This document shows positions 2,261-63,598 of a DNA stretch of 64,000 nucleotides, piece after piece; position 1 is the stretch's first letter, and every line of letters begins with the position of its first letter. A model generated the notes under the pieces. The model saw only the letters and a program-made list of their open reading frames with translations. It was not told the origin of the DNA and did not search any database. Source of the DNA: Armatimonadota bacterium (lineage in GTDB: Bacteria; Armatimonadota; Armatimonadia; Armatimonadales; Armatimonadaceae). The position numbers and the translations under genes are program-made. The DNA is taken from NCBI GenBank assembly GCA_031363095.1, contig JANLTX010000011.1:26575-90574 (forward strand), written 5' to 3'.

Positions 2261-3547
2261 TTGAACGAAGAAGTGGGTAACGAAGACGTTGACAGGACAT
2301 TGACGCGCCGTGAGTTTGCGGTCGGCGGCGTCGGGGCGGCGCTACTGGCAAGTGGGAACTATGCCTGGGCGCAAGGCTCGGGGACGATAAAGGTCGGGCT
2401 GATCGGCTGCGGCGGACGTGGCAACGGTGCGGTGCGAAACTGCGCTCAGGCCGATCCATCGATAGAGATCGTGGCCCTTGGCGACGTATTTGCGGACCGA
2501 CTGAGCGGCACCCGCGAGGGGCTGGCCAAAGACCTGGGCGCTCGCTACAAAGCCACTGATGCGACCTGCTTTGTGGGCTTCGACGCCTACCAGAAAGTGC
2601 TTTCAACCAACATCGATCTGGTGATTCTCGCGACCCCGCCCGGCTTCCGGCCCGGCCACTTCGCGGCGGCGATTGCAGCAGGCAAGCACGTTTTTATGGA
2701 AAAACCCGTCGCCGTGGACCCGGTCGGTATCCGCTCCGTGATCGCGACCAGCGAGATCGCGACCCAGAAGGGTCTCGCCGTGGTCTCGGGCACCCAGCGA
2801 CGGCACCAGGCGAACTATTTAGAGACCATGGCCCGGATTCACAAGGGGGAGATCGGGGAGATCGTCTCCGGCTCGGTCTACTGGAACCAGGGCGGCCTCT
2901 GGATGAACCAGCGCCAGCCCGAGTGGAGCGACATGGAGTGGCAGCTCAGAAACTGGCTCTACTTCACCTGGCTCTCCGGTGACCATATCGTCGAGCAGCA
3001 CGTTCACAACCTGGATGTCGCAAACTGGGCGCTGGGTGCCCACCCGGTGAAAGCCTACGGTATGGGCGGACGGCAGGTGCGCACCGACCCGGCCTACGGG
3101 CACGTCTTCGACCACTTTGCCATTGAGTACACCTACCCGAGCGGCGCACGTATCCAGAGCTTCTGCCGCCAGATCGACGGCACCGCGAGCCGGGTGAGCG
3201 AGTCGTTCACCGGAACAAAGGGCACCACCGACGGCGCAAGCTGGGTGATGCGCGGCAACAAGCGCTGGAAGTACGACAGTAAGACCAAAAAGCCGCTCGA
3301 TCCCTATGTGCAGGAGCATGTCGATCTAATTGCGTCCATTAAAGCCGGAAAGCCGCTCAACGAAGGCAAGCGCATCGCGGAATCGACGCTCACGGCCATT
3401 ATGGGGCGGCAAGCGGCCTACTCGGGCCAGGAGATTCAGTGGGACGCGCTCTTGAACTCGGACCTGAACCTGATGCCCACGACGCTGGAGATGGGTTCTC
3501 TTCCTGTCGCGCCCGTCGCCGTGCCCGGCAGAACCCGAGGGGTTTAA
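2261..3547 (+). CDS. Gfo/Idh/MocA family oxidoreductase with twin-arginine signal
   Basis: TAT-like TRREFAVGGVGAALLASGNYAWA, Rossmann motif KVGLIGCGGRGNG, and GKHVFMEKP. TTG start. Confidence 0.85.
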   Translation: MNEEVGNEDVDRTLTRREFAVGGVGAALLASGNYAWAQGSGTIKVGLIGCGGRGNGAVRNCAQADPSIEIVALGDVFADRLSGTREGLAKDLGARYKATDATCFVGFDAYQKVLSTNIDLVILATPPGFRPGHFAAAIAAGKHVFMEKPVAVDPVGIRSVIATSEIATQKGLAVVSGTQRRHQANYLETMARIHKGEIGEIVSGSVYWNQGGLWMNQRQPEWSDMEWQLRNWLYFTWLSGDHIVEQHVHNLDVANWALGAHPVKAYGMGGRQVRTDPAYGHVFDHFAIEYTYPSGARIQSFCRQIDGTASRVSESFTGTKGTTDGASWVMRGNKRWKYDSKTKKPLDPYVQEHVDLIASIKAGKPLNEGKRIAESTLTAIMGRQAAYSGQEIQWDALLNSDLNLMPTTLEMGSLPVAPVAVPGRTRGV

Positions 3548-3629
3548 AACCCATCTTTCCTGTTTCCAGGACCATAAAAGGTCCTGGTTCTAAAAACGAC
3601 CGCACGTTCATCGTGCCGGAGAACAATCC

Positions 3630-4538
3630 ATGGACCGAAAGACATTTTTAACCGCCGGGGCCACCGCCGTGGTCTCCCCGCTTGCGGGGACGGAAGGGGC
3701 CGCCGCGCTCGCCGCGCCGCAGAAGAAGTTCCAGCTCAAGTACGCGCCTCACTTCGGGATGTTCGGCAACTCCGCGCCGGGCGGACCAATCGAGGAACTA
3801 AAGTACATCGCCAATCAGGGCTTTATGGCCCTCGAAGACAACGGCATGAAAGGCCGCTCGGTCGAGGAGCAAACAAAAATCGGCGCGGAGATGGCCCGAT
3901 TGAATTTAGCCATGGGCGTCTTCGTCGTGAACCTGGACACGGCCTGGAGCACAACGCTCGCTTCGGGCAAAGAAGATAGCAAGAAAAAGTTCTTAGACGA
4001 GTGCAGAAGCTCGGTCGATGTCGCCAAAAGAGTCAACGCAAAATGGATGACCGTGGTCTGCGGGACGTTCGAGGAGCGCCTGGACATCGGCTACCAGACC
4101 GCCAATGTCGTGGACTGTCTCAGGGCCGCCGCCGAGATTTTTGAGCCGCACGGCCTGGTGATGGTTTTAGAGCCGCTCAACCCGCGCGATCACCCGAGAT
4201 TGTTTCTCTCCAAGATCGGGCAGGCGTTTGAGGTCTGCCGGGCCGTGAACTCGCCCTCGTGCAAGATTCTGTTTGACATGTACCACCAGCAGGTCACGGA
4301 GGGCAATCTCATCCCGAACATCGACCGGGCCTGGAGCGAGGTGGCGTATTTCCAGATCGGGGACAATCCGGGCCGCCAGGAGCCGACGACGGGCGAGGTG
4401 AACTGGCGCAATGTCTTCAAGCACATCGCTCGCAAGGGCTATCAGGGCGTCCTGGGCATGGAACACGGGACATCGGGGCGCGGCAAAGAAGGCGAAGCCC
4501 AGCTCATCGCCGCCTACCGCCAGTCCGACAGCTTCTAA
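3630..4538 (+). CDS. Sugar phosphate isomerase/epimerase (xylose-isomerase-like TIM barrel, hydroxypyruvate-isomerase-like), TAT/Sec exported
   Basis: N-terminus MDRKTFLTAGATAVVSPLAG. TIM-barrel family motifs VLEPLNP, ILFDMYH and GYQGVLGMEHG. Confidence 0.85.
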   Translation: MDRKTFLTAGATAVVSPLAGTEGAAALAAPQKKFQLKYAPHFGMFGNSAPGGPIEELKYIANQGFMALEDNGMKGRSVEEQTKIGAEMARLNLAMGVFVVNLDTAWSTTLASGKEDSKKKFLDECRSSVDVAKRVNAKWMTVVCGTFEERLDIGYQTANVVDCLRAAAEIFEPHGLVMVLEPLNPRDHPRLFLSKIGQAFEVCRAVNSPSCKILFDMYHQQVTEGNLIPNIDRAWSEVAYFQIGDNPGRQEPTTGEVNWRNVFKHIARKGYQGVLGMEHGTSGRGKEGEAQLIAAYRQSDSF

Positions 4539-33212: not shown

Positions 33213-34985
33213 TTAGAGGTCCGCGACACCCTTCAGCTCGTCGTTGTCGTAGAGCCGGATCGCGCCTTTGCCCGAGACCACGACCGTGACCTGGACAGGA
33301 TCGCCCGACTCGTGCTGGGTGTCGTACTCGGTCCGCTTGCCGTCGGCGTCGGTGACATCGATCCGAATGCGGTGGATCTTGCCGTCGCGCGGGACCACGT
33401 ACGGCTCTTTGGGAACGCTGTACGAGTGGGTCGCGCTCCGGGCTGGCTCCGGCGGCGTTTTCGGCTCTGGCTCGTTACTGGAAACCGGTGGCGCTTCAAT
33501 CGGCTCCGGGGTCGGGTCGGGGGTCGGCTCAGGAGTGGGTTCGGGCGTCGGCTCCTCGCCCTTGGAGACGACCAGGTTGACCTGCGCTCCCTTGGGGCGG
33601 CGCTCGTTGGCCGACGGTTCTTGATCTAAGACATTCCCCTTGACCATGAAGTCGTAGCGGTACGTCACCGGCCCCATCCGAAGGCCCGCCCGGTCCAGCT
33701 CTTTCTTGGCACGCTCCAGCGCCATCTCGGTCACGCTGGGAACGACGACCGTCACCGGCCCGAGCGAGATCCCGACGGCAAGCTTGGTGCCTTCTTTGAC
33801 CTTCATTCCGGCCTGATCGCGCTGCATGTAGATCGTCCCGGCGGGAAAGTTGACCTGGTTCTTCTTTTCGTACTCGACGACATCGAACTTCGCCTTGTGC
33901 CCGAGCGTCTCGGCTTCCTCGATGCTCTTGCCGATCAGGTTCGGAACGACCACGTCGCCGGGCGGCACCATGATCTTCATGATCATCGAGACCAGGTACC
34001 AGGCGAGGACGCCGAGTCCGAGTAGCATCAGCAGGTTGAAGCTGGCAAACCAGCGTCCGATCCCTGGCTTTTGGCGGGAAGATTTCACGTTTGTCTGTTC
34101 CTCATGGGCAGGCTCTGGCATCGCGCCGGGAAGCGTCGGGCGGGAGACCCGGCGACGCGGAGTGCCTTTCGCGACAGGTGCAGGCTCACTCTCGTCCAGT
34201 GGCGACCACGAGAGAGAGGTTCCTTTTTGTAGCGCATCCTGGACGGTACGCAGATCGCTTGCCAGCGACTCGGCGGTTTCGTAGCCGCCAGAGAGCGCTT
34301 TCACTGTAATTCCTTCGAGCGCACGCGGGACCGCCTGATTGCGTTTCTTCGGCGAGATCCACCCGCCCGAGCTGCCTTCGGGCTGGGCACGCTCACCCGT
34401 CAGCATCGGATAGAGCAGCTCGCCCACCCGCCGCAGGTCGTTTCCCATCGACGCGTCTCTTGCCTCGCCGAAGCCGGTGAGCCGGGGCAGGGTGTCGCTG
34501 GCCATCCAGATTCGCTCGGGCGTCAGGTCGCCGTGCGCGACGCCCTGGCGGTGCGCGTAGGTAAGCGCCTCGGCAACTCCCAGCGCGATCTCCGTCGCCA
34601 CGTTGAGGGAGAACGGAGCGCCCCGCTTCAGCCGCTCCCGGAGGTCCAGCCCCCGGACGAACTCCTCGGTCAGGCCGCAGAGTCCGCGCTCCGGATCGCT
34701 CACCGGCTCGTAGGTCCGAACGATATTCGGGTGCTGAAGCCCCAGCGCCGTCGTCCAGCCCTCGGTCAGACGCTCTTCCAGCGTCTCGCGGTCGGGTAGC
34801 TCGCCACGCAACAGCTTGATGGCGACGATCCGGTTCTGTTGCTGGTCCCGCGCACGAAACAGCCACAACAGAGGGGTCTCGCCCAGGGTTTCGAGGATCT
34901 CGTAGCGGTCCGCAACAACCTGGTTGATCCAGGCTCGCCCCAGGCCCGCTCCCGTCTCGACCTCGCTTCGGCTTTCTTCCGCCAC
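33213..34985 (-). CDS. PASTA-domain membrane protein with degenerate Ser/Thr kinase domain (predicted pseudokinase)
   Basis: Kinase-like N-domain (VAIKLL retained; HGDLTPER in place of HRDxKxxN; GFG in place of DFG; glycine loop absent). TM helix FNLLMLLGLGVLAWYLVSMI. Two PASTA-like repeats, a PEPTPEPTPEPTPDPTPEP linker and a small C-terminal domain. Confidence 0.8.
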   Translation of the reverse strand: MAEESRSEVETGAGLGRAWINQVVADRYEILETLGETPLLWLFRARDQQQNRIVAIKLLRGELPDRETLEERLTEGWTTALGLQHPNIVRTYEPVSDPERGLCGLTEEFVRGLDLRERLKRGAPFSLNVATEIALGVAEALTYAHRQGVAHGDLTPERIWMASDTLPRLTGFGEARDASMGNDLRRVGELLYPMLTGERAQPEGSSGGWISPKKRNQAVPRALEGITVKALSGGYETAESLASDLRTVQDALQKGTSLSWSPLDESEPAPVAKGTPRRRVSRPTLPGAMPEPAHEEQTNVKSSRQKPGIGRWFASFNLLMLLGLGVLAWYLVSMIMKIMVPPGDVVVPNLIGKSIEEAETLGHKAKFDVVEYEKKNQVNFPAGTIYMQRDQAGMKVKEGTKLAVGISLGPVTVVVPSVTEMALERAKKELDRAGLRMGPVTYRYDFMVKGNVLDQEPSANERRPKGAQVNLVVSKGEEPTPEPTPEPTPDPTPEPIEAPPVSSNEPEPKTPPEPARSATHSYSVPKEPYVVPRDGKIHRIRIDVTDADGKRTEYDTQHESGDPVQVTVVVSGKGAIRLYDNDELKGVADL

Positions 34986-36647: not shown

Positions 36648-36666
36648 TGGGAGAACCCGAGTGCGT

Positions 36667-38343
36667 CTACAGGGAGACGCGGGTCGCTCCGGGATTGTCC
36701 GGGTCCACGATGGTCGGCGTGATGAAGATAAGAATCTCCGAGCCGCGCGAGGTCTTGGACTTCTGCTGGAAGAGTCGCCCGACGATAGGCAGGCTGCTGA
36801 GCAGCGGCACCCGGTCGTCGGTCTCACTCACCTGCCGGTTGATGAAGCCCCCCACCACCATCGTCTCGCCGTTGCGCAGCCGCCGGAACGCGTTGACGGA
36901 CTGGGTTTTGTTGGTCGAGGTTGGCAGGCCATTGGCACCGATAGTGACAGTCTGAGTGCTCAGCGACGGTGCCACCTGCATGCTGATCGTATTGTCGCCA
37001 TTGATGTGCGGCAGGATCTGAAGCTGCTGGAACGCCGGGATCACCACCTGAATCGGCTGCGGGATGGTTCCAAACTGGGTGACGATCTGCGACGTGATGA
37101 ACGTCGTGGTGACGTCCGAGACGCTGATGCTTCCCAGGGTATTGTTCGCCGTGCTGATAATAGGAGCCTGAAGAATGTTGTTCGTGGACTTTGTCAGCGC
37201 GGCCCGCATGTTCGCCACGGCGTTGCCGGAGCTGTAGGCCATGTAGACAGTCGGGTTACCTGCGCCACTGGGCGGGACGAACACGTCCAGGTTGTTAGCC
37301 GGAGCAAAGTGCCAGTCCACACCGAACGAGTCGGTATCGTTGATGTCCACGGTCACGAACTCGGCCTTGACGATCACTTCCTGAGGCGCTTTGTCGAGCA
37401 GCTTGATGAGCTGTCGAAGCTGCTGCACCGCATCGGCGTCGCTGGACTGGACGATCAGTGTGTTGTCGGCATCGTTGGCGATGATGTTGTCGATGCCATC
37501 GGGGCGAAGCGCACCCGGCTGACCCGCTCCACCGGCTCCACCCGCACCGCCAGGACCACCGGCTCCACCACCGAAGCCGCCCTGACCGCCACCGAAGCCA
37601 CCCTGACCGCCGCCGCGTCCACCGCCGAAGCCGCCGCCACCGCCGCCGAAGCCACCACCACGCTGACCGGCGCTCTCGGCGGTATGCTCCGCGTTACCCT
37701 GCACCGTCGGTGGAGTCACTCCCGCTGCTGCTGCCTTGAGCAGAAGATCTGCATTGACACCACCGTTGAAGTAGCTCTTGGGCATGAGATCCTGCGCCAG
37801 ATCCTGCGCAAGGCGCTTGGCCATCGTGTCTAAGCCGCCCTGGCCGTCCAGAAGTCGCTTGAGATCGGTCGCCGGGTAGTACATCAGCTTGATCGAGAAG
37901 TACTGCCCCGAGGCTTTCTTCTTGGGCGGAGCCACGACCACAGCCTCATCGGCGGGCCTGGCAGTCGGGATCGGCTTGACCTCAGGAGCAGGCGGAGTCG
38001 GCTCCGACCCCTTGGGACGAATGTAGAAAATTCCGTCCTCATCCTTGACGATAGCTCCGCCAAGCTGAGCCACGATCTGAAGGGCCTTGCGGATCGGGAT
38101 TCGATCCAGTTTGGCCGTCACCAGGCGATACTCCCCCGGCTCGACGACGATGCTCTTGATGCCCGCTTGCTGGGTGATGCCCGCGATCACTGACTGAAGC
38201 CGCGCATCGCGCAGATCCAGCGTAATCAGCGAATCATCGTTGCGTTCCTGCGCCAGCGCAGCCGGAACGGCCAACCAGACGGGTGCTGAGAGTGCCAGGA
38301 GAGCGAGAACGCTCCCACCTCGCATCCGATTTTGCATATACAT
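36667..38343 (-). CDS. pilQ: Type IV pilus secretin PilQ with internal glycine-rich insertion
   Basis: Signal peptide. N0-like ITLDLRDARLQSVI... The secretin core ends VPLLSSLPIVGRLF...SEILIFITPTIV. The insertion is GGGFGGGGGGFGGGRGGGQGGFGGGQGGFGGGAGGPGGAGGAGGAG. Confidence 0.9.
   Translation of the reverse strand: MYMQNRMRGGSVLALLALSAPVWLAVPAALAQERNDDSLITLDLRDARLQSVIAGITQQAGIKSIVVEPGEYRLVTAKLDRIPIRKALQIVAQLGGAIVKDEDGIFYIRPKGSEPTPPAPEVKPIPTARPADEAVVVAPPKKKASGQYFSIKLMYYPATDLKRLLDGQGGLDTMAKRLAQDLAQDLMPKSYFNGGVNADLLLKAAAAGVTPPTVQGNAEHTAESAGQRGGGFGGGGGGFGGGRGGGQGGFGGGQGGFGGGAGGPGGAGGAGGAGQPGALRPDGIDNIIANDADNTLIVQSSDADAVQQLRQLIKLLDKAPQEVIVKAEFVTVDINDTDSFGVDWHFAPANNLDVFVPPSGAGNPTVYMAYSSGNAVANMRAALTKSTNNILQAPIISTANNTLGSISVSDVTTTFITSQIVTQFGTIPQPIQVVIPAFQQLQILPHINGDNTISMQVAPSLSTQTVTIGANGLPTSTNKTQSVNAFRRLRNGETMVVGGFINRQVSETDDRVPLLSSLPIVGRLFQQKSKTSRGSEILIFITPTIVDPDNPGATRVSL
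37514..37663 (-). repeat. GGC/GCC-rich tract encoding the PilQ glycine-rich insertion
   Basis: Runs of CCGCC/GCCACC on the plus strand, translating to a G/F/Q low-complexity segment. Confidence 0.8.
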
Positions 38344-38439
38344 ATCCTCTCCAAACTACCTGAAAAGCTGTCAAGAGAGAGATCGGGACTACCTCCGATG
38401 AGCGACAGCCCGATCTCTCCCACACTTACTTACCGTGGC

Positions 38440-39204
38440 TTAGAAGCCGCGTCCGCCGCCGAAGCCGCCGCCGCCAAAGCCGCCGCCGCCGCCACCGAGG
38501 CCGCCGCCGCCGCCAAAGCCGCCACCGCCTCCACCGAGGCCGCCGCCACCGCCACCGAAGCCACCGCCACCGCCGCCGAAGCCGCCGCCACCCAGGCCGC
38601 CGCCACCGCCACCGAAGCCGCCGCCACCCAGGCCGCCGCCACCGCCACCGAAGCCGCCACCACCACCGCCAAGGCCGCCGCCACCGCCGCCGATACCGCC
38701 ACCCATCTGCTGCTGGCGCTGGAACGGACGAAGGAACAGGAACGGACCGATCAGCTGCTGAAGGTCCATCGCATCGATGTACGTCAACGGAATGATGTCC
38801 GGCGGGCGGCGCTGAGGCTCATCCACCTCGGGAGCCGAGTCCAGACCGCTCGTGGTCGGCGGAATCATCGGGCGAGGCTTCACGATGTACACACCGTTCT
38901 CTTTGGTGTACGTCAAAGGAATCGTCGCGGTTCGCATGATCAGCTTGAGTGCGTTCTCAAACGGCTGATCGCGAATCTTCAGCGTCACGAAGCCGCTCAC
39001 CAGCGGATCGATGGTGTACTGTACGTTCGCGCTGTTGAAGATCTGCTCCAAAGCGCTCTTGATCTGCGCATCCCGAAGCTCAACCGTCACAGGGGGCGGC
39101 TCCTGCGCCCGTGCTACTCCGGGTGCGACAACCAGCGTTGTCACCGAGAGCGCCGCAGCCAGAAGCATTGTCCTTTTAATCATGAATGTTCCTTGCTTTC
39201 TCAA
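38440..39204 (-). CDS. Secreted paralog of the PilQ N-terminal module (N0-like domain + start of N1) ending in a ~90-aa glycine-rich tail
   Basis: Signal peptide. VTVELRDAQIKSALEQIF...FVTLKIRDQPFENALKLIM parallels PilQ ITLDLRDARLQSVIAGIT...LVTAKLDRIPIRKALQIVA. IIPLTYIDAMDLQQLI parallels FSIKLMYYPATDLKRLL. It then ends in (GGGGGFGGGGGGL)n. Confidence 0.65.
   Translation of the reverse strand: MRKQGTFMIKRTMLLAAALSVTTLVVAPGVARAQEPPPVTVELRDAQIKSALEQIFNSANVQYTIDPLVSGFVTLKIRDQPFENALKLIMRTATIPLTYTKENGVYIVKPRPMIPPTTSGLDSAPEVDEPQRRPPDIIPLTYIDAMDLQQLIGPFLFLRPFQRQQQMGGGIGGGGGGLGGGGGGFGGGGGGLGGGGFGGGGGGLGGGGFGGGGGGFGGGGGGLGGGGGGFGGGGGLGGGGGGFGGGGFGGGRGF
38443..38706 (-). repeat. Long GCC/GCCGCC tract encoding the GGGFGGGGL tail
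   Basis: About 260 nt of near-periodic GCCGCC/ACCGCC. The other frames give the poly-Ala shadow ORFs in the track. Confidence 0.85.
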
Positions 39205-39219
39205 GCTTTCTCAAAAAGT

Positions 39220-40116
39220 CTAAGCACCGGCGGCACCACCAGCGCCACCCTTGCCGCCCATCGCAGGGCCGCCACCGCCGCCGAAGCCACCCGCGCTCGG
39301 GCCGCCACCAAAGCCACCACCGCCGAACCCGCCGCCGCCACCGAGCTGGCCGCGCATGGCATCCAGCACCGCCGGGGAGAGTCCGCTCAGCTTGACCTCG
39401 ACCGTCCGGCCATCGTCGGCGCGTAGCACCAGTCGATCCATCGCTATCGAGTCCACAGTCAGGTCCGCGATTCCCGGAACGCCGCTGGGAACCTTCGCCC
39501 CCGGCGCGATGATCCGGGTGTCCGAGCTGGGCGACTCGCCCGTCTCTAAAATTGCCGTGATCGCCCCATTGTACAGCACCCCCGCCACGCGGCGCGGCAC
39601 CGGAGGCAGCGGCAGCATGTTCTCAACACCCCCCGGCCCATCAATAGGAACATCTTTGGGGAACGCCGCCAGCCGCATCGGGGCCGCCAGCGTGTACGCG
39701 TCAGGCTCGGTGACTATCAGCCGATAGAACGAAACGAACGGATCGCCACGGAACTTGCTCACCGCTCCGACACGGATCGGTGCAGGCTTGGCCGCGCCGC
39801 CTGCGGCGGCGTCCATCGGGTTCGGTGCGGCTCCCCCGCCCGCTACTACGCCGGGCATTCCTTCGGGCGCAGCGTCAAACGAGCTTTGAACCTTCGGCGG
39901 GGCCTTGGCAACTGCCATGCCGCCACCCGCCGGGCCGACCGGGAGCGTCGGGGCTGTCGGGACCGTCCCCGGTCCCGCAGGAGATTGGACCGTCGGGTCG
40001 CCCGCCGCCGGGGCTTCCGGAAGGGGTGGAGCCGCAGGCTCGCTACTCGGGCATCCAGCGATCAGCCCTGCCGAGAGCGCCAGAGCGCCCAGCCATACAC
40101 TGTGTTTTTTGTTCAT
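39220..40116 (-). CDS. pilP: PilP-like pilus assembly lipoprotein with glycine-rich C-terminal tail
   Basis: Lipobox LSAGLIAGC, RGDPF motif, C-terminal beta-domain pattern RVAGVLYNGAITAILETG...LVLRADDGRTVEVKL, and tail GGGGGFGGGGFGGGPSAGGFGGGGGPAMGGKGGAGGAAGA. Confidence 0.7.
   Translation of the reverse strand: MNKKHSVWLGALALSAGLIAGCPSSEPAAPPLPEAPAAGDPTVQSPAGPGTVPTAPTLPVGPAGGGMAVAKAPPKVQSSFDAAPEGMPGVVAGGGAAPNPMDAAAGGAAKPAPIRVGAVSKFRGDPFVSFYRLIVTEPDAYTLAAPMRLAAFPKDVPIDGPGGVENMLPLPPVPRRVAGVLYNGAITAILETGESPSSDTRIIAPGAKVPSGVPGIADLTVDSIAMDRLVLRADDGRTVEVKLSGLSPAVLDAMRGQLGGGGGFGGGGFGGGPSAGGFGGGGGPAMGGKGGAGGAAGA
39223..39345 (-). repeat. GC-repeat tract encoding the PilP glycine-rich tail
   Basis: GCCACC/GCCGCC runs at the 3' end of the gene. 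Confidence 0.8.
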
Positions 40117-40125
40117 ACTGAAAAC

Positions 40126-40935
40126 CTATTGCCCCCGTGCATCGGCCATGCCCGCCGCCTGAGGCCCGCCTGCCTGGCCGCCACCAGCGCCATAACCGCC
40201 GCCACCGCCGCCGCCACCGTAGCCGCCGCCACCGGGAGGACCACCCACGCCGCCACCGCCGCCCATCATGCCGCCCGCACCCGAGCCACCCGCCCAGGGG
40301 AAGGCAGGACCGGGCTTCTCGGTGTTCTGCGCGAAGATATAAGCCGTCACGGTGTACGAGGCTTCGAGCTGCGGAGACTGCCCCGCGAGGCTCAGCCCAT
40401 CCACCATGACCAGGCGGTTGAAGTTGTTCCAGCGCCGCACGTGCCGCATGATGTTGGGGAAGGTACCCCGTACCCGGACATTGCCCAGCGTGAAAATATA
40501 GGGCTGCGGCTTGTTCACCTGGTTCGGGTCTTCCGGCGGCGGCGGGAGCGAGAAGCTCTTCTGGACAATCGTCACCGACTTGTCCGCCGTGACGAACTTG
40601 TCCACCGACGGCCCGAGGCGCTGAATCTGCTCCGTCCAGAGCTGCTGAGTCGCTCCCCAGAGATCCGACATATTGATGCGCGGCATCAACGAGCGATCAT
40701 AGGTCGCCCAGTCTGCCTGTGCCGCCAGTTTGTCTGAAGCGACTTTCTTCTCACGGGTCTTTTCGCCCGGCATCTTCGCCGCTTCCTGCTCACGCCCGTC
40801 GCGACGGGCTTCCTGTGTCGCCGTCTCGTCCATCGAGGGCTTGACCAAACCAAAAAAGATACCGGCTGCAAACATCAGCGAGAGAACCCCGGAGATGATC
40901 CAGGCCACCCCGGCTGTGATTTTAGGAGATTTCAT
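40126..40935 (-). CDS. pilO: PilO-like pilus assembly protein with glycine-rich C-terminal tail
   Basis: N-terminal TM helix, coiled-coil segment, and ferredoxin-like end GTFPNIMRHVRRWNNFNRLVMVDGLSL...YTVTAYIF. Tail GGMMGGGGGVGGPPGGGGYGGGGGGGGYGAGGGQAGGPQAAGMADARGQ. Confidence 0.75.
   Translation of the reverse strand: MKSPKITAGVAWIISGVLSLMFAAGIFFGLVKPSMDETATQEARRDGREQEAAKMPGEKTREKKVASDKLAAQADWATYDRSLMPRINMSDLWGATQQLWTEQIQRLGPSVDKFVTADKSVTIVQKSFSLPPPPEDPNQVNKPQPYIFTLGNVRVRGTFPNIMRHVRRWNNFNRLVMVDGLSLAGQSPQLEASYTVTAYIFAQNTEKPGPAFPWAGGSGAGGMMGGGGGVGGPPGGGGYGGGGGGGGYGAGGGQAGGPQAAGMADARGQ
40129..40300 (-). repeat. GC-repeat tract encoding the PilO tail; near-duplicate of 40947-41110
   Basis: By-eye alignment to the pilN 3' end shows a high level of nucleotide identity over ~150 nt. 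Confidence 0.8.
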
Positions 40936-40943
40936 ACGTTAAA

Positions 40944-41711
40944 CTATTGCCCCTTCGCCTCGTCCATGCCCGCCGCCGACGGACCACCCGCCTGGCCGCC
41001 ACCAGCGCCATAGCCGCCGCCACCGCCGTAGCCGCCACCACCGCCACCGGGAGGACCACCCACGCCACCGCCACCACCGCCCGCTCCACCGACGGAGCTA
41101 CCGCCGCCAGGAGGCGCAGGTGCCGCCACGGAGTTGGTTAGCTGCGCGACGACATCGATGTCGAAGCCCGCTGCGTTGGGATCGGCTTGCTGGCCAGGAC
41201 CAATCGTCTGGTTGGTCTTGGTGTTGGGCCAGCCATAGATTCCCTTCCAGCCGACTGCTTTGACGTCCGGGTTGGCCGACATCGCCAGGTAGTAGTTCGC
41301 GGCGTCGGAGAGCTTTTTCACCCGACCTTTGATGGCAAGCGTGTCGCCCTGAACCGTCATCGAGTTGTACTCGACGCGCGGGTCGGTGTAGCGTGCCGCT
41401 TGCTCGAAGATGCGAGGACGAAGCCCGTTGTACCAGCGGACCTGCTTGACGAAGTTGACCTTGGCCTTCAGCGGCGCAATCGTCGCTTCTTCAGCGTCGT
41501 TCTTGCTACGAAGCGTCTCGACCTCGGTGGCGCGGCGGTCGGCATCCGCCGCTTCGTCCGCCATCTTCACCTCGGCAGGTTTGACCTGGAAGAAGTGGTA
41601 GCCCAGCATCGCCCCAACGACTGCCGTCAGCAGTGCGATTGCCAGGACGTAGTGAGTCGTTCGCTTTTTTTGCTCACCGAGGTAAGCAGGTAGTAGGTTT
41701 ACTCGAAGCAT
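40944..41711 (-). CDS. pilN: PilN (fimbrial assembly) protein with glycine-rich C-terminal tail
   Basis: MLRVNLLPAYL followed by a TM helix. Tail GGGSSVGGAGGGGGGVGGPPGGGGGGYGGGGGYGAGGGQAGGPSAAGMDEAKGQ. Confidence 0.85.
   Translation of the reverse strand: MLRVNLLPAYLGEQKKRTTHYVLAIALLTAVVGAMLGYHFFQVKPAEVKMADEAADADRRATEVETLRSKNDAEEATIAPLKAKVNFVKQVRWYNGLRPRIFEQAARYTDPRVEYNSMTVQGDTLAIKGRVKKLSDAANYYLAMSANPDVKAVGWKGIYGWPNTKTNQTIGPGQQADPNAAGFDIDVVAQLTNSVAAPAPPGGGSSVGGAGGGGGGVGGPPGGGGGGYGGGGGYGAGGGQAGGPSAAGMDEAKGQ
40947..41110 (-). repeat. GC-repeat tract encoding the PilN tail
   Basis: See 40129-40300. Confidence 0.8.
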
Positions 41712-41762
41712 TGTCGATTACGCTCTCTCTGAATAGTCACGCCCAACCTATTGGAACGTCGA

Positions 41763-41787
41763 GGGGCCATTTTCCTTCAATGGCCCC
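41763..41787 (-). other. Intercistronic hairpin between pilM and pilN
   Basis: GGGGCCAT-loop-ATGGCCCC, 8-bp perfect stem, 10 nt downstream of the pilM stop. Confidence 0.6.
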
Positions 41788-41797
41788 GAAACTTTTC

Positions 41798-43219
41798 TCA
41801 GCGACCCGCCCCCAGCACGGCATCGCGCGTCGCGAGTCCCATGGCGACGGCCAGCGCGGGAGCCATCTGCGCCCGTGCATCCAGCGAGACCTGACGCGCC
41901 GTGACGTTGACCCCGGCGAAGGGATCGGCCACCACCGCCGTCAACCCGGTCTGGTACTGAACATAGTCCGCCAGCCCCGGAATCGAGGCAGAACCGCCGC
42001 AGAGCAGCACCTGATCGATATTCTCGGTCGGGTAGCGCGACTTGAAGTAGTCTATCGAGCGCTGGAGCTCCATGACGAACTCGCCCAGCACCGGACTCAG
42101 CGCGTAGAAAACTTCTTTCTGGCGGGTCGTCCGGGGGTCTTCAGGCACGGGAGCGGTCTCGGGTGCCAGGGCCGCCACAGGAGCCGCCTCGGCAGGCGCA
42201 CCGGGCGTATCGAAGGGATTGTCGTAGGAAATATCAAACGGGTTGTCGCCCGCAGGCACCTCTCCGCCTCCGCCTTCTCCGCCGCTGTAGAGCGAGGGCG
42301 GCAGGGGCGCGGCCAGATCGACATCGAACGGGCTGGAGATACCCGCATCGGTCGGCGCACTCCCGAAGATTCCGCCGCCGTCCGTCGGCTGGTTGACCAG
42401 ATCCATGAAGATCTTGCCGTTCTGCTTTTTTTCGTCCTCGGCGGCGTCCATGGGAAGCCCGAGTCGGTCGGCGACGGCCTGGGTGAAGTTGTCTCCGCCC
42501 AGCGGGATCGTACGCGGGAAGCGCAGAGTCGCCTGCTTGAAGATCCCGACATCGGTCATCGATGCCCCGAGGTTGACCACGACGACGTTCTTGTCTTTGA
42601 GGCCCTGGCTCGACAGGTTGATCAGCGCCCGCCCGACGGCAAGCGGCTCGACATCGATGGCAACCGGAGTCAGACCCGCCGCCTTGAGCGTCTCCAGATG
42701 CGCAAAGACCATGTCGCGCTGGGCGCAGGCAAGCAGAACCTCCATGTTGGGGTTGGCTTCGTCTGCGTCCACCGCCGGGTCGTCGATCTTCTGATAGCTC
42801 ATCTCGACATCGGTCGCGGAGAACGGGATGTGGCGCTCCACTTCCCACTTCATGGTCTCCGCAAGCTCTGAGAGACTCATCTTGGGAACTTCGATGACGC
42901 GAACGACGACCGCCGCAGCGCCCGAAGCCGCTGAGACGCACTTGCCGCGCGCCTTGACGCCGGACTTATTGAGCAGCGCCTTGATCGCCGCACCGAGTGT
43001 CTTGGGGTCAGACACGACGCCCTGGGAGATCGTCCCGAGCGGGGTCTTGTCGATCCCGAATGCAGTGACACGCAGGCCACTGCCCGACCCTGTCACTTCG
43101 ACGACCTTGATCGTCTGAGACCCGATGTCCAGCCCAACGAACGACCCGCCACTGGGCCTGGGAGCGCGGACTGCTACCGCCTTGGGCTGAGGTGAGGGCT
43201 TTGTCTTGCCACCTGGCAT
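41798..43219 (-). CDS. pilM: PilM (actin-like type IV pilus assembly protein) with ~90-aa acidic/Pro-rich insertion
   Basis: FVGLDIGSQTIKVVEV, VVVNLGASMTDV, VLLCGGSASIPGLADYV. The preferred start MPGGKTKP at 43219 is preceded by GGAAGGTGG. Confidence 0.9.
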   Translation of the reverse strand: MPGGKTKPSPQPKAVAVRAPRPSGGSFVGLDIGSQTIKVVEVTGSGSGLRVTAFGIDKTPLGTISQGVVSDPKTLGAAIKALLNKSGVKARGKCVSAASGAAAVVVRVIEVPKMSLSELAETMKWEVERHIPFSATDVEMSYQKIDDPAVDADEANPNMEVLLACAQRDMVFAHLETLKAAGLTPVAIDVEPLAVGRALINLSSQGLKDKNVVVVNLGASMTDVGIFKQATLRFPRTIPLGGDNFTQAVADRLGLPMDAAEDEKKQNGKIFMDLVNQPTDGGGIFGSAPTDAGISSPFDVDLAAPLPPSLYSGGEGGGGEVPAGDNPFDISYDNPFDTPGAPAEAAPVAALAPETAPVPEDPRTTRQKEVFYALSPVLGEFVMELQRSIDYFKSRYPTENIDQVLLCGGSASIPGLADYVQYQTGLTAVVADPFAGVNVTARQVSLDARAQMAPALAVAMGLATRDAVLGAGR

Positions 43220-43284
43220 GCTGCCACCTTCCTTACCATGAAGTGGGCCATTGTAACACGCCCACAAAATCCGTGTCAAGCACG

Positions 43285-61468: not shown

Positions 61469-63598
61469 TTAGCGGACAGCATTGCCCACACGAACCTTGT
61501 CGGAAAACTGAATCGTCTGCGGAACCGGGGCGTTTGAGTCGTGGACCCGCGCTCCGATCTGGACATTGAGCAGCGAGCGGGTCGAGTAGTCTAATTTCAC
61601 CACGTCGCCCTCCGGCTTGAAGTCTCCGGTGGCGGCACGCTGGTCGGCGGCGTTCAGCGGATAGCCCTGAGTGTCTCGGGCGAAGTTGTTCTGCCAAAGA
61701 TAGCTCACCCGAAGCTCGCGCGGCTGGGCCAGGCTCGCGGGCAAACCGGGCGTGTTGGGGTCAGGGAGCGCCGGGGTTCCGGCACCGAGCAGGCCGTTGC
61801 CGATGTCAATTTTCTCTCCGGCGTCGAACCAGATCAGGGCGCGGTTGGGCTGGAAGAACTGGCTCAGAACATAGTTGCGCTGACCGTTCACCGGCGCATA
61901 GGGCAGCGCTGCGTTCCCGGCAAGCCCGGCGAAGCTTTTTGCCAGAAGCGTGGTTCCCACGGTTTCGTTGATCCGGTTGTAAGGCAGAAGCTGCGCCGTG
62001 GCGGACATCGGCATCTCCGGCCCCAGCACCTGCTCGGTGCCCGGCGCGATCATCACGCCGCCTGCATCGAGCACCGCGCCCGTGCCGTCGGTGTTCCCGA
62101 AGACTCGGAGCGGCGAGGGAAAGCCCGCGCCCAGCCCTGCGATGGGAGTGAGGGTGTCGGCGTAGTAGCGCTCGGTCCCACCCGTCGCCGCCAGGAGATC
62201 GATCCCCCAGAGGCCCTGATCGGGGCGGACCCCGAGAGCGCCCGCACGCGAATCAAGCGTGTTGATGCGCAGCACGGTCGGGACCAGCTCGCCGAAGTTG
62301 GCATCCGGGTAGACGCTCGGGTTCATCGGGATCACTGCGCCGCCGCTTGCCGGAGCGAAGAGCGGAACGCCCCCGGTGGTTCCGGCGAGCGGCGGGAAGC
62401 CGGTCTCGACGCGGCCACGCAGGGCATCGACGGAGAACGTGAGCCGGGGCGTCTTGACGAAAATCTTGCCGCTGACTGCCGAGAGCGACGTGAAGACCTC
62501 GTTCTGGAGCGTCGCGAGCTTGCCGCTACTGCTTGCCAGTCGGACGCGCGGCCTCGCCGGGTTCACCGTATTATCCATCTCGACGACGAACTGGGCGCTT
62601 CCTTCATTCGTACCTGAGTTGCGGGTGGTGGAGCGGAAGAACGTGACGGTGAATGGAAGAGTCCACTGTCCGTGCTGCGCCGAGTAGAGCGTTGGGGGTG
62701 CGCCGGGCGTCTCCGCGTTGCCCGCCGTCAGCGAGCCGGGCGTCGCGGTGTCGCCGGGCACTGCCGACGGCGCGAAGTAGGCCAGCGTCTGGAACGGCAG
62801 GTCGGTGATCAGCTCGCGGCTGCTATCGCGTCGCCAGGCAAGCATGTCGAGGCGCGGCCCCGAGATCACCGCACTGACCTTGCGCTTCCAGTTCTCCGCG
62901 AACGGTCGTCCGTTGGGCGCGACGTTGGTATTGTAGAAGAAGTTCGGATCGTTGAACCGTCCCGCCAGCGTGGAATCCTCGCCAAGCGGCGTGGGAACGA
63001 TCAAGTCCGGATCGTCCATTTTAAACTCGGCGCGGTAGAGAAGCACGGGGTTGAAGTCGGTGTCTTCCCCGCGAAACTCGTAGCGGTTGCCATAGAGCTT
63101 GGCGTTGTCGGCCAGCCCCAAGAAGTTCCGCACGACGCGCGTCCCCGGCGCGAGCGGGAACGTGATGTGGTTCCCTGTCAGCGGCTTGCCGGTCGTCGGG
63201 TCGATGGTGCCGCCAGGAGTTCCCTGGCTGTCGGGCAGAATATAGTCGAGCTTTGCAAATAGAATTCGCGGACGGTTCGTCGGCCCCCCATCGAAGTTGA
63301 TCGTCCGGTTCAGCGGAATCACCACGGCGGTTGTCGTATTGTCGAAGACGAACGTTGCCTGAGACAGCTCGCGGCTGATCCGCTCGACGCCGTTTCGAGC
63401 GGCGTCCTGCGCCGTCGCCTGGCTCTGCACCCGGTTGGTGATCTGCTGGGCATAGAACAGCGGATAGAGCAGCAACCCCAGCAGGATCGTAGAGATCGCG
63501 ATCACCACCAGAAGCTCCACCAGCGTAAAGGCGCGTTTGGCCGCTCGTCGCATGCTTGTTCTTTCTATTCTCGAACTCATCGAACTCTTTGCACTCAT
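61469..63598 (-). CDS. Large (694-709 aa) prepilin-type N-terminal cleavage/methylation-domain protein
   Basis: MRRAAKRAFTLVELLVVIAISTILLGLLLYP (class III signal peptide with Glu+5, and Ala rather than Gly at -1). The M1 start forms ATGA with the upstream stop, and the classical short leader would start at 63553. Confidence 0.8.
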   Translation of the reverse strand: MSAKSSMSSRIERTSMRRAAKRAFTLVELLVVIAISTILLGLLLYPLFYAQQITNRVQSQATAQDAARNGVERISRELSQATFVFDNTTTAVVIPLNRTINFDGGPTNRPRILFAKLDYILPDSQGTPGGTIDPTTGKPLTGNHITFPLAPGTRVVRNFLGLADNAKLYGNRYEFRGEDTDFNPVLLYRAEFKMDDPDLIVPTPLGEDSTLAGRFNDPNFFYNTNVAPNGRPFAENWKRKVSAVISGPRLDMLAWRRDSSRELITDLPFQTLAYFAPSAVPGDTATPGSLTAGNAETPGAPPTLYSAQHGQWTLPFTVTFFRSTTRNSGTNEGSAQFVVEMDNTVNPARPRVRLASSSGKLATLQNEVFTSLSAVSGKIFVKTPRLTFSVDALRGRVETGFPPLAGTTGGVPLFAPASGGAVIPMNPSVYPDANFGELVPTVLRINTLDSRAGALGVRPDQGLWGIDLLAATGGTERYYADTLTPIAGLGAGFPSPLRVFGNTDGTGAVLDAGGVMIAPGTEQVLGPEMPMSATAQLLPYNRINETVGTTLLAKSFAGLAGNAALPYAPVNGQRNYVLSQFFQPNRALIWFDAGEKIDIGNGLLGAGTPALPDPNTPGLPASLAQPRELRVSYLWQNNFARDTQGYPLNAADQRAATGDFKPEGDVVKLDYSTRSLLNVQIGARVHDSNAPVPQTIQFSDKVRVGNAVR

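Follow-up and report, generated by a model that had tools for sequence, protein, structure and literature searches.

Why should five consecutive components of one bacterial pilus machine each carry a long stretch of glycine (Gly)? The question was raised by a 64,000-nucleotide stretch of an Armatimonadota genome (assembly GCA_031363095.1, contig JANLTX010000011.1, positions 26,575 to 90,574), which was analyzed over its whole length and is referred to here as the window. The locus concerned is an operon for the alignment proteins and the secretin of a type IVa pilus. It belongs to an Armatimonas-like bacterium of the phylum Armatimonadota; the nearest database relatives carry the names Armatimonas or Armatimonadaceae. 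The genes are read from the minus strand in the order pilM-pilN-pilO-pilP-PilQn-pilQ-aroK-aroB, followed by a PASTA-domain Ser/Thr kinase and rpe, PilQn being the name used for the gene between pilP and pilQ. As judged from the sequences, every periplasmic ring component of this machine appears to have acquired, and to keep, an uncharged Gly-rich segment in Armatimonadota.

Gly-rich segments on five consecutive genes

Five Gly-rich segments were located on five consecutive genes. Four are C-terminal tails and the fifth is the core of a longer insertion in PilQ (aa, amino acids):

40950..41108 (-), PilN tail, aa 202-254, 60% Gly, with Tyr/Val/Pro/Ala
40132..40290 (-), PilO tail, aa 209/216-268, 55-60% Gly
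39226..39345 (-), PilP tail, aa 258-297, core 69% Gly, with Phe/Pro/Ala
38443..38706 (-), PilQn tail, aa 167-254 (88 aa), core ~85% Gly, Phe or Leu every 5-7 residues, ending GGGRGF
37513..37833 (-), PilQ N1 insertion, aa 171-277 (107 aa), in the loop between helix 1 and strand 2
37516..37662 (-), Gly core of the PilQ insertion, aa 228-276 (49 aa), 74% Gly, GGGFGGGGGGFGGGRGGGQGGFGGG...

An earlier reading made from the sequence alone (the sequence-only reading) had described Gly tails on PilN, PilO and PilP and a tail of ~90 aa on PilQn. These were confirmed at 40-53 aa (55-70% Gly) and 88 aa, respectively, in intact open reading frames (ORFs). All five ORFs stay in frame through the Gly tracts and reach their stop codons soon afterwards. 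When all six frames of the 64-kb window were scanned over its full length, 13 or more Gly within 25 residues occurred at these five places only. The segments contain runs of 4-7 Gly without a 3-residue period, and no transmembrane segment follows the tails.

All five segments are predicted to be periplasmic, from the signal peptides of PilQ and PilQn, the lipobox of PilP and the N-in transmembrane helices of PilN and PilO. They are probably disordered. In AlphaFold2 models, which took up a check proposed in the sequence-only reading, the predicted local distance difference test score (pLDDT) was 31-39 in the PilO tail and below 50 in the PilP tail.

The composition of the segments is constrained: about two-thirds of the residues are Gly, charge is nearly excluded and single hydrophobic residues recur regularly. 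Pooled PilQ cores contained 66% Gly, 6.8% Gln, 5.6% Phe, 2.2% Arg, 0.6% Asp+Glu and 0% Lys, with a median length of 43 aa and an interquartile range of 36.5-50. Hydrophobic or aromatic residues made up 12.4%, as isolated Phe, Leu, Ile, Met or Tyr at about every sixth position. Their modal spacing was 5-7 residues, and successive hydrophobic pairs no more than 2 residues apart accounted for 5.0% of pairs compared with 27.9 +/- 2.0% in shuffled sequences (0 of 500 shuffles as low). In this make-up the segments resemble cohesive sticker-spacer domains, in line with the likeness to FG/GY-type domains noted in the sequence-only reading.

At the DNA level, ~95% of the Gly codons in the window tails are GGC or GGT, and GGG and GGA, which make up 27% and 17% of background Gly codons, are nearly absent. 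The DNA repeats in the tails are imperfect, with 60-80% matches (in the PilQn tail, a 36-nt repeat of 6.4 copies with 79% match), and are therefore unlike the recent expansion of one unit.

Several known kinds of Gly-rich sequence were considered and rejected. An RGG/GAR nucleic-acid-binding domain would not fit the Arg content of the PilQ cores (just 2.2%, with one Arg in the window PilQ core), and the strict Gly-X-Y period of a collagen-like triple helix is absent from the segments. No pattern of a glycine-zipper membrane segment or a GlyGly-CTERM sorting signal was found, nor any Pfam or NCBIfam match to either. An outer-membrane beta-signal at the end of PilQn was rejected too, as GGGRGF is without the alternating hydrophobic residues of that motif. 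The opposite-strand ORFs 36661-37833 (+) and 38332-39426 (+) were rejected as genes, being Ala/Thr/Pro/Arg-rich mirror images of the coding strand. These plus-strand ORFs, of 390 and 364 aa, lie opposite pilQ, PilQn and pilP, and an ORF caller might mistake them for genes.

The position of the PilQ insertion was determined by deletion in silico. Intact PilQ gave a partial, sub-threshold match to Secretin_N (21.6 bits, profile positions 25-68). PilQ from which aa 171-277 had been removed passed the threshold with a full match (positions 4-68 of 69, 34.8 bits), so that the insertion splits a single N1 domain between its first helix and its second strand. The insertion lies at the identical place in all aligned PilQ homologs. 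The sequence-only reading had assigned it to a 'first N1-like domain'; the position was correct and the word 'first' was misleading, as PilQ has one N1 only, which adjoins the secretin domain and is in that respect equivalent to N3 of other secretins.

The insertion occupies the site of the 'variable loop' defined for the secretin N3 domain (PMC6155069). In InvG, a secretin of type III secretion, this loop (residues 217-267) is disordered in most structures and has been proposed to explain the periplasmic constriction of the closed state (PMC6155069). The phage secretin pIV has a disordered N3 loop that is directed into the pore's centre (10.1101/2021.07.20.453082). Like these loops, the PilQ insertion follows the first helix and precedes the second strand of the N domain next to the barrel. 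It differs from them in its length of 107 aa, in its core of ~50 aa with 74% Gly and in the presence of similar modules on four partner proteins.

Conservation of the segments and their matching within genomes

Thirty loci from species-representative genomes were retrieved with a 7-sequence PilQ alignment. The order pilM-N-O-P-Qn-Q-(x)-aroK-aroB was kept wherever the contig of a related locus extended far enough, and the operon recurred with its modules in metagenome-assembled genomes of Armatimonadaceae, Capsulimonadales and Chthonomonadales. The closed isolate genome of Capsulimonas corticalis (AP025739.1) has the same operon with the same modules and also keeps the synteny pilQ-aroK-aroB-kinase-rpe. 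No Gly-rich segment was present in two outgroup secretin loci (Planctomycetota, Bryobacterales). The survey of orthologs for similar tails that the sequence-only reading had proposed thus returned modules from ~30 assemblies and the closed Capsulimonas genome, and none from the two outgroup loci. Two outcomes named in advance as counting against that reading were not seen: close orthologs keep their tails, whose absence there, together with dispensability, was to have pointed to neutral slippage, and the ORFs are in frame and share their architecture with a closed genome, which speaks against errors of frame or assembly.

Each of the five sites was followed through the relatives. Among the best 120 PilQ homologs the insert was present in all 120, at the same position. 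Candidates in this search are picked by shared words, with a bias to words of the GGGFG type, and an exhaustive HMMER search was therefore rerun with the Gly-free C-terminal 275 residues of PilQ as query. Among the best 150 cluster representatives so obtained, a Gly-rich insert was found in 95 of the 122 full-length relatives (78%), just upstream of a conserved L-x-P-x-G-[IV] motif. With tail-less queries, a tail was present in 7/7 PilO homologs, and Gly/Pro/Met tails were present in most PilP homologs. The PilQn tail was found in all orthologs. Its ending GGGR[GN]F is common and semi-conserved in Armatimonadaceae-level relatives, and the C-terminus reads GGGGY[IL]P in Chthonomonas and GGGGFR in Capsulimonas. 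Across the phylum PilQ proteins have diverged to ~31% identity, with the modules retained at the five specific sites. Segments conserved across a phylum in this way are not the slippage products of one genome.

Gly-rich stretches were confined to the operon over ~385 kb of related loci, with three borderline exceptions that are not such repeats. Two of the three are the antisense frame of a Thr/Pro linker of the kinase (PEPTPEPTP). In the window itself, the PASTA-domain Ser/Thr kinase (33213-34985 (-)) carries the linker PEPTPEPTPDPTPEP, the antisense frame of which mimics a Gly-rich peptide, GSGVGSGVGSG.

The hydrophobic partner of Gly differs by lineage, being Phe/Leu in the window, Met in several Armatimonadaceae and Tyr/Pro in Capsulimonas. 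The window has GGGF, GGGL and GGY, and GGM or GGGM repeats occur in a number of relatives (P0014-P0022, L006, L010, L011, L014).

Within one genome the tails resemble each other. At the DNA level the window's PilN tail is 86% identical to its PilO tail; the folded parts of the two proteins cannot be aligned. In five genomes the PilN tail gave local alignment scores of 12-33 with the PilO tail of the same genome and of no more than 8 with any orthologous PilN tail. In Capsulimonas, GGYPG repeats are common to the PilN, PilO and PilP tails, and GGGF repeats are common to PilQn and PilQ. Gene conversion is the obvious mechanism for this matching.

Many metagenome contigs (L003-L009, L013, L017, L019) begin inside the PilQn Gly tail, ~200 nt upstream of pilQ. 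Short-read assemblies evidently break at this point, and the operon is often split in Armatimonadota assemblies. The tracts thus have a practical cost, as they break metagenome assemblies at the operon, and they also defeat the standard Pfam naming of PilN, PilO and PilP in the phylum. Gly-rich modules on the pilus proteins of Armatimonadota were not found described in the literature searched, with many subscription papers lying outside its reach.

The periplasmic conduit and rival readings of the segments

Proteins of this kind stack into rings of 12-15 copies. The Gly-rich cores total 250 residues per set of five proteins, which at this copy number would amount to ~3,000-3,700 Gly-rich residues per machine, in a very small volume. 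The reading preferred here, which is held tentatively and is quite possibly wrong, is that the segments, disordered, cohesive and arrayed in rings, make up a mesh or plug within the periplasmic conduit. The spaced hydrophobic residues would associate weakly with each other to give a flexible mesh. Immediately beneath the gate, the 12-15 loops of PilQ would make a soft constriction or plug, and the lower periplasmic cage would be filled or lined by the tails of PilN, PilO, PilP and PilQn. In the absence of a pilus the segments would jointly seal the conduit, and when the fibre moves they would surround it as a compliant gasket.

Secretins are large outer-membrane holes, and how they are sealed, and how the rings are aligned around a fast fibre, are open questions. 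An unplugged vestibule lets antibiotics leak through type IV pilus secretins, and dedicated plug proteins were first described in 2026, in Pseudomonas (PMC13392014). These proteins, SlkA and SlkB, occupy the vestibule of PilQ beneath the gate and maintain the outer-membrane barrier up to the docking of the inner-membrane complex (PMC13392014). They are largely confined to gamma-proteobacteria, and their authors expect other kinds of plug elsewhere (PMC13392014). The Gly-rich segments could be a built-in counterpart of SlkA and SlkB, the plug proteins found in Pseudomonas aeruginosa. SlkA and SlkB are separate periplasmic proteins, unlike the candidate plug considered here, which would be built into the subunits themselves with PilQn perhaps as an accessory, and there is no homology between the two. 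The Armatimonadota segments are a testable candidate for an alternative solution to plugging, the one in PilQ lying in a loop proposed to constrict other secretins. Such a solution would also carry the idea of cohesive disordered barriers, familiar from nuclear pores and chaperonin cavities, over to the bacterial periplasm. Relative to the known type IVa machine, the distinguishing elements are the Gly segments on five ring components, the N0-only PilQn and the minimal secretin without AMIN.

A stronger form of the proposal is that the five modules jointly constitute a cohesive phase like that of FG-nucleoporins or of GroEL tails, serving inside the periplasmic conduit as a self-sealing permeability barrier and as a gasket for the pilus. 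This form is regarded as unlikely. If it were true, it would be the first barrier made of disordered segments to be reported for a trans-envelope nanomachine of bacteria, and the matching of tails within a genome would reflect selection for like-with-like cohesion.

FG-nucleoporins line a transport conduit with uncharged, disordered segments that are anchored to a ring and bear Phe or other hydrophobic stickers at regular spacing, a layout that the pilus segments may resemble; GF/FG motifs occur in the window. Their spacers are rich in Ser/Thr/Asn/Gln where the pilus segments have poly-Gly, the pilus segments are much shorter, soluble cargo is handled there and a rigid fibre here, and many of the relatives use Leu, Ile, Met or Tyr. 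Gel formation and selectivity are properties of the nucleoporins, to which the pilus segments are likened in composition. The Gly-Met tails of GroEL gather in the central cavity (PMC4379175, PMC11978752). The pilus segments may resemble these (GGM)n tails, as Gly-hydrophobic and probably disordered segments on ring subunits, and literal GGM or GGGM occurs in the PilQ, PilQn, PilN and PilO of relatives. GroEL is cytoplasmic, with tails of ~13 residues on one protein, whereas the pilus segments are predicted to be periplasmic and have 40-90 residues on five proteins; the hydrophobic residue is Met in GroEL and Phe/Leu/Tyr in the window segments.

The 'glycine loops' of keratin and loricrin are also quasi-repeats of one aromatic or aliphatic residue and a Gly run, and a weak, sub-threshold match to Pfam Keratin_2_head was obtained (E=0.025); these proteins are eukaryotic, cytoplasmic and unrelated, and the likeness is compositional only. 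Small basic repeats form a lineage-specific low-complexity segment in the PilQ of Neisseria. Such repeats, like the linker of Thermus PilW, belong to single proteins, whereas here poly-Gly occurs on five ring components. The Gly/Pro-rich region of Thermus PilW is alike in being a lineage-specific flexible segment in a periplasmic pilus component (PMC13039148).

Several observations weigh against a mesh or plug. The remaining 27 of the 122 full-length PilQ relatives (~22%) mostly have Asn/Ser/Thr/Gln/Pro-rich low-complexity inserts at the same place, the PilN tails of three related loci (L016, L018, L022) are Ala/Pro/Thr-rich, and two PilP clusters (P0288, P0289) have no tail. The segments change length fast, even between 99%-identical proteins (558 vs 554 aa), which fits relaxed constraint on the exact sequence, and gene conversion alone could yield the matching tails, a neutral explanation. 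Low pLDDT is weak evidence for disorder, especially with shallow alignments. In needle-bound InvG part of the variable loop is ordered, and the loop runs outwards, passing between N3 and N1 (PMC6155069). The specificity of the segments for the operon was tested in part, over the 64-kb window and the flanks of related loci.

The segments might instead be elastic tethers or spacers (entropic springs, flexible linkers), or peptidoglycan anchors that replace AMIN, through which the rings span or adapt to the periplasm and retraction forces are buffered. This is doubtful, with a real chance of being right. It would account for a PilQ without the peptidoglycan-binding AMIN domain, the semi-conserved GGGR[GN]F end of PilQn could be a docking end, and the GGYPG/GPGG-type repeats of Capsulimonas resemble elastomeric motifs. 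A precedent is Thermus PilW, the counterpart of PilP, which is described as flexible and rich in Gly/Pro, in a periplasm that is wide (PMC13039148). In four of the five modules, however, the C-terminus is free and no folded domain comes after the module, so that two anchored elements are not linked. A conserved terminal motif is absent from every tail but that of PilQn, PilP already carries a Pro/Ala-rich spacer of its own on the N-terminal side, and no peptidoglycan-binding motif was found in a Pfam scan. That the segments are largely neutral low-complexity expansions, produced by GC-rich slippage and gene conversion in tolerant loops and termini and harmless there, is judged rather improbable. 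Tandem-repeat signatures in the DNA, the indels that distinguish close strains, the 86% DNA identity of the PilN and PilO tails (indicating conversion), the lineage drift of the dominant partner residue and the lineages without Gly-richness or without any tail are all as expected under neutrality. Retention at five sites across the phylum, despite the divergence of PilQ, is not; nor is the lack of any such stretch elsewhere in the 64 kb or in the ~385 kb of flanks, which have the same GC content. The core length is narrow (interquartile range 36-50 aa), charge is excluded and the hydrophobic residues are evenly spaced, and GGC and GGT are interleaved while GGG and GGA are avoided, unlike one amplified codon unit.

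Ordered glycine structures, whether polyglycine-II/polyproline-II bundles or beta-rich rings, would turn the segments into rigid layers upon assembly. Runs of 4-6 Gly broken by single hydrophobic residues at regular spacing would suit such a structure, and the Gly-Met tails of GroEL have been reported as polyproline-II helices (PMC12571646). The PilO and PilP tails, however, were not confidently structured in AlphaFold2, and exact sequence, repeat unit and length vary from lineage to lineage, with frequent indels; order of this kind is considered improbable. The chance that the Gly tracts are an error of sequencing, assembly or frame is negligible. The region is evidently hard to assemble, as the many contigs that break in the PilQn tail indicate, but five ORFs run in frame through their tracts and stop soon after, the folded domains on either side of the PilQ insert share one frame, and the same architecture is found in ~30 independent assemblies and in a closed isolate genome.

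Proteins of the operon and neighbouring genes

Six intact and tightly spaced ORFs occupy positions 36667-43279 (-):

41798..43279 (-), pilM, 493 aa, cytoplasmic actin-like alignment protein, without a Gly-rich module
40944..41711 (-), pilN, 255 aa, MLRVNLLP N-terminal motif, one transmembrane helix, periplasmic core
40126..40935 (-), pilO, 269 aa, transmembrane helix, coiled coil, ferredoxin-like core aa 122-200
39220..40116 (-), pilP, 298 aa, lipobox LIAGC, Pro/Ala-rich linker, beta-domain aa ~175-242
38440..39204 (-), PilQn, 254 aa, predicted signal peptide, N0 (STN), first strand-helix of N1, Gly tail
36667..38343 (-), pilQ, 558 aa secretin, signal peptide, N0, split N1, secretin domain

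As single sequences, PilN, PilO and PilP gave no Pfam or NCBIfam match at E<=0.1, and their earlier names therefore rested on gene order alone. Those names are now backed by a profile match for PilN and by fold matches for PilO and PilP. The N-terminus of PilN is MLRVNLLPAY, in which Leu-Arg and Leu-x-Pro are invariant among ten orthologs, and a profile of the orthologs matched Myxococcus xanthus PilN (PDB 3jc8_Na) with E=1.6e-7. Profile searches of PDB sequences gave nothing for PilO or PilP.

PilO was modelled with AlphaFold2 from a shallow alignment of 7 sequences, to moderate confidence (mean pLDDT 54.9). Besides a transmembrane helix and long helices, the model shows a core of strand-helix-strand-helix-strand-strand order at aa 122-200, where pLDDT was 70-86. 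When searched against the PDB with Foldseek, its top four fold matches were all PilO (3jc8_Oa, 2rjz_B, 5uvr and 2rjz_A; probability 1.00). Support at the level of sequence was weak, with E=0.28 to PF04350 for the window protein and weak matches to Pfam PilO and T2SSM among its orthologs.

The beta-domain of PilP was modelled confidently (AlphaFold2, pLDDT 81-91). Its best fold match was the homology-region (HR) domain of GspC bound to GspD (3oss_C), with a probability of 1.00, a TM-score of 0.78 on the target and a root-mean-square deviation of 2.5 A; the E-value of this match is just 0.019 because the domain is small. The lipobox marks PilP as a lipoprotein, and its GspC HR-type beta-domain is predicted to bind the N0 domain of the secretin.

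PilQ was matched by Pfam Secretin PF00263 (E=5.4e-29) and also by TIGR02515 and TIGR02517. No AMIN domain was found in it at E<=0.1 (Pfam). AMIN is typical of proteobacterial type IVa pilus secretins, unlike PilQ of the window, which has the minimal N0-N1-secretin layout of phage pIV. PilQn matched TIGR02515 at model positions 3-117 and, once its tail had been taken off, Pfam STN at 30.1 bits (cutoff 28.4); it was 25% identical to the N-terminus of PilQ (E=0.01). It looks like an N-terminal duplicate of PilQ that is cut off within the N1 Gly-rich insertion. Possible roles of PilQn are to build an additional N0 ring, to compete for PilP or to serve as a plug.

PilM was matched by Pfam PilM_2 (PF11104, E=1.9e-57) and by TIGR01175 (E=7.8e-68, 229 bits against a cutoff of 133). 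At aa ~300-390 it has an acidic, Pro-rich and probably disordered insertion of ~90 aa with NPF[D/A/G] motifs. This insertion is cytoplasmic, and its composition is quite unlike that of the periplasmic Gly-rich modules. Two copies of the motif occur in the window and up to 6 in relatives (L002, L014, L016, L018, L022, L031), with none in Chthonomonas. The NPF motif could be a short linear docking motif.

Directly upstream of pilM, four very large genes lie on the same strand (43343-63598 (-)). One encodes a 709-aa protein with a prepilin N-methylation motif (61469-63598 (-)), and the products of the other three are of 1106 aa, of 1675 aa with DUF4159, and of 3324 aa with a Sec signal peptide. 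The four genes may encode pilus-associated giant proteins. The 3324-aa protein gave no Pfam match, and a homolog of it (35-36% identity over >1000 aa) lies upstream of pilM in two related loci, L002 and L016.

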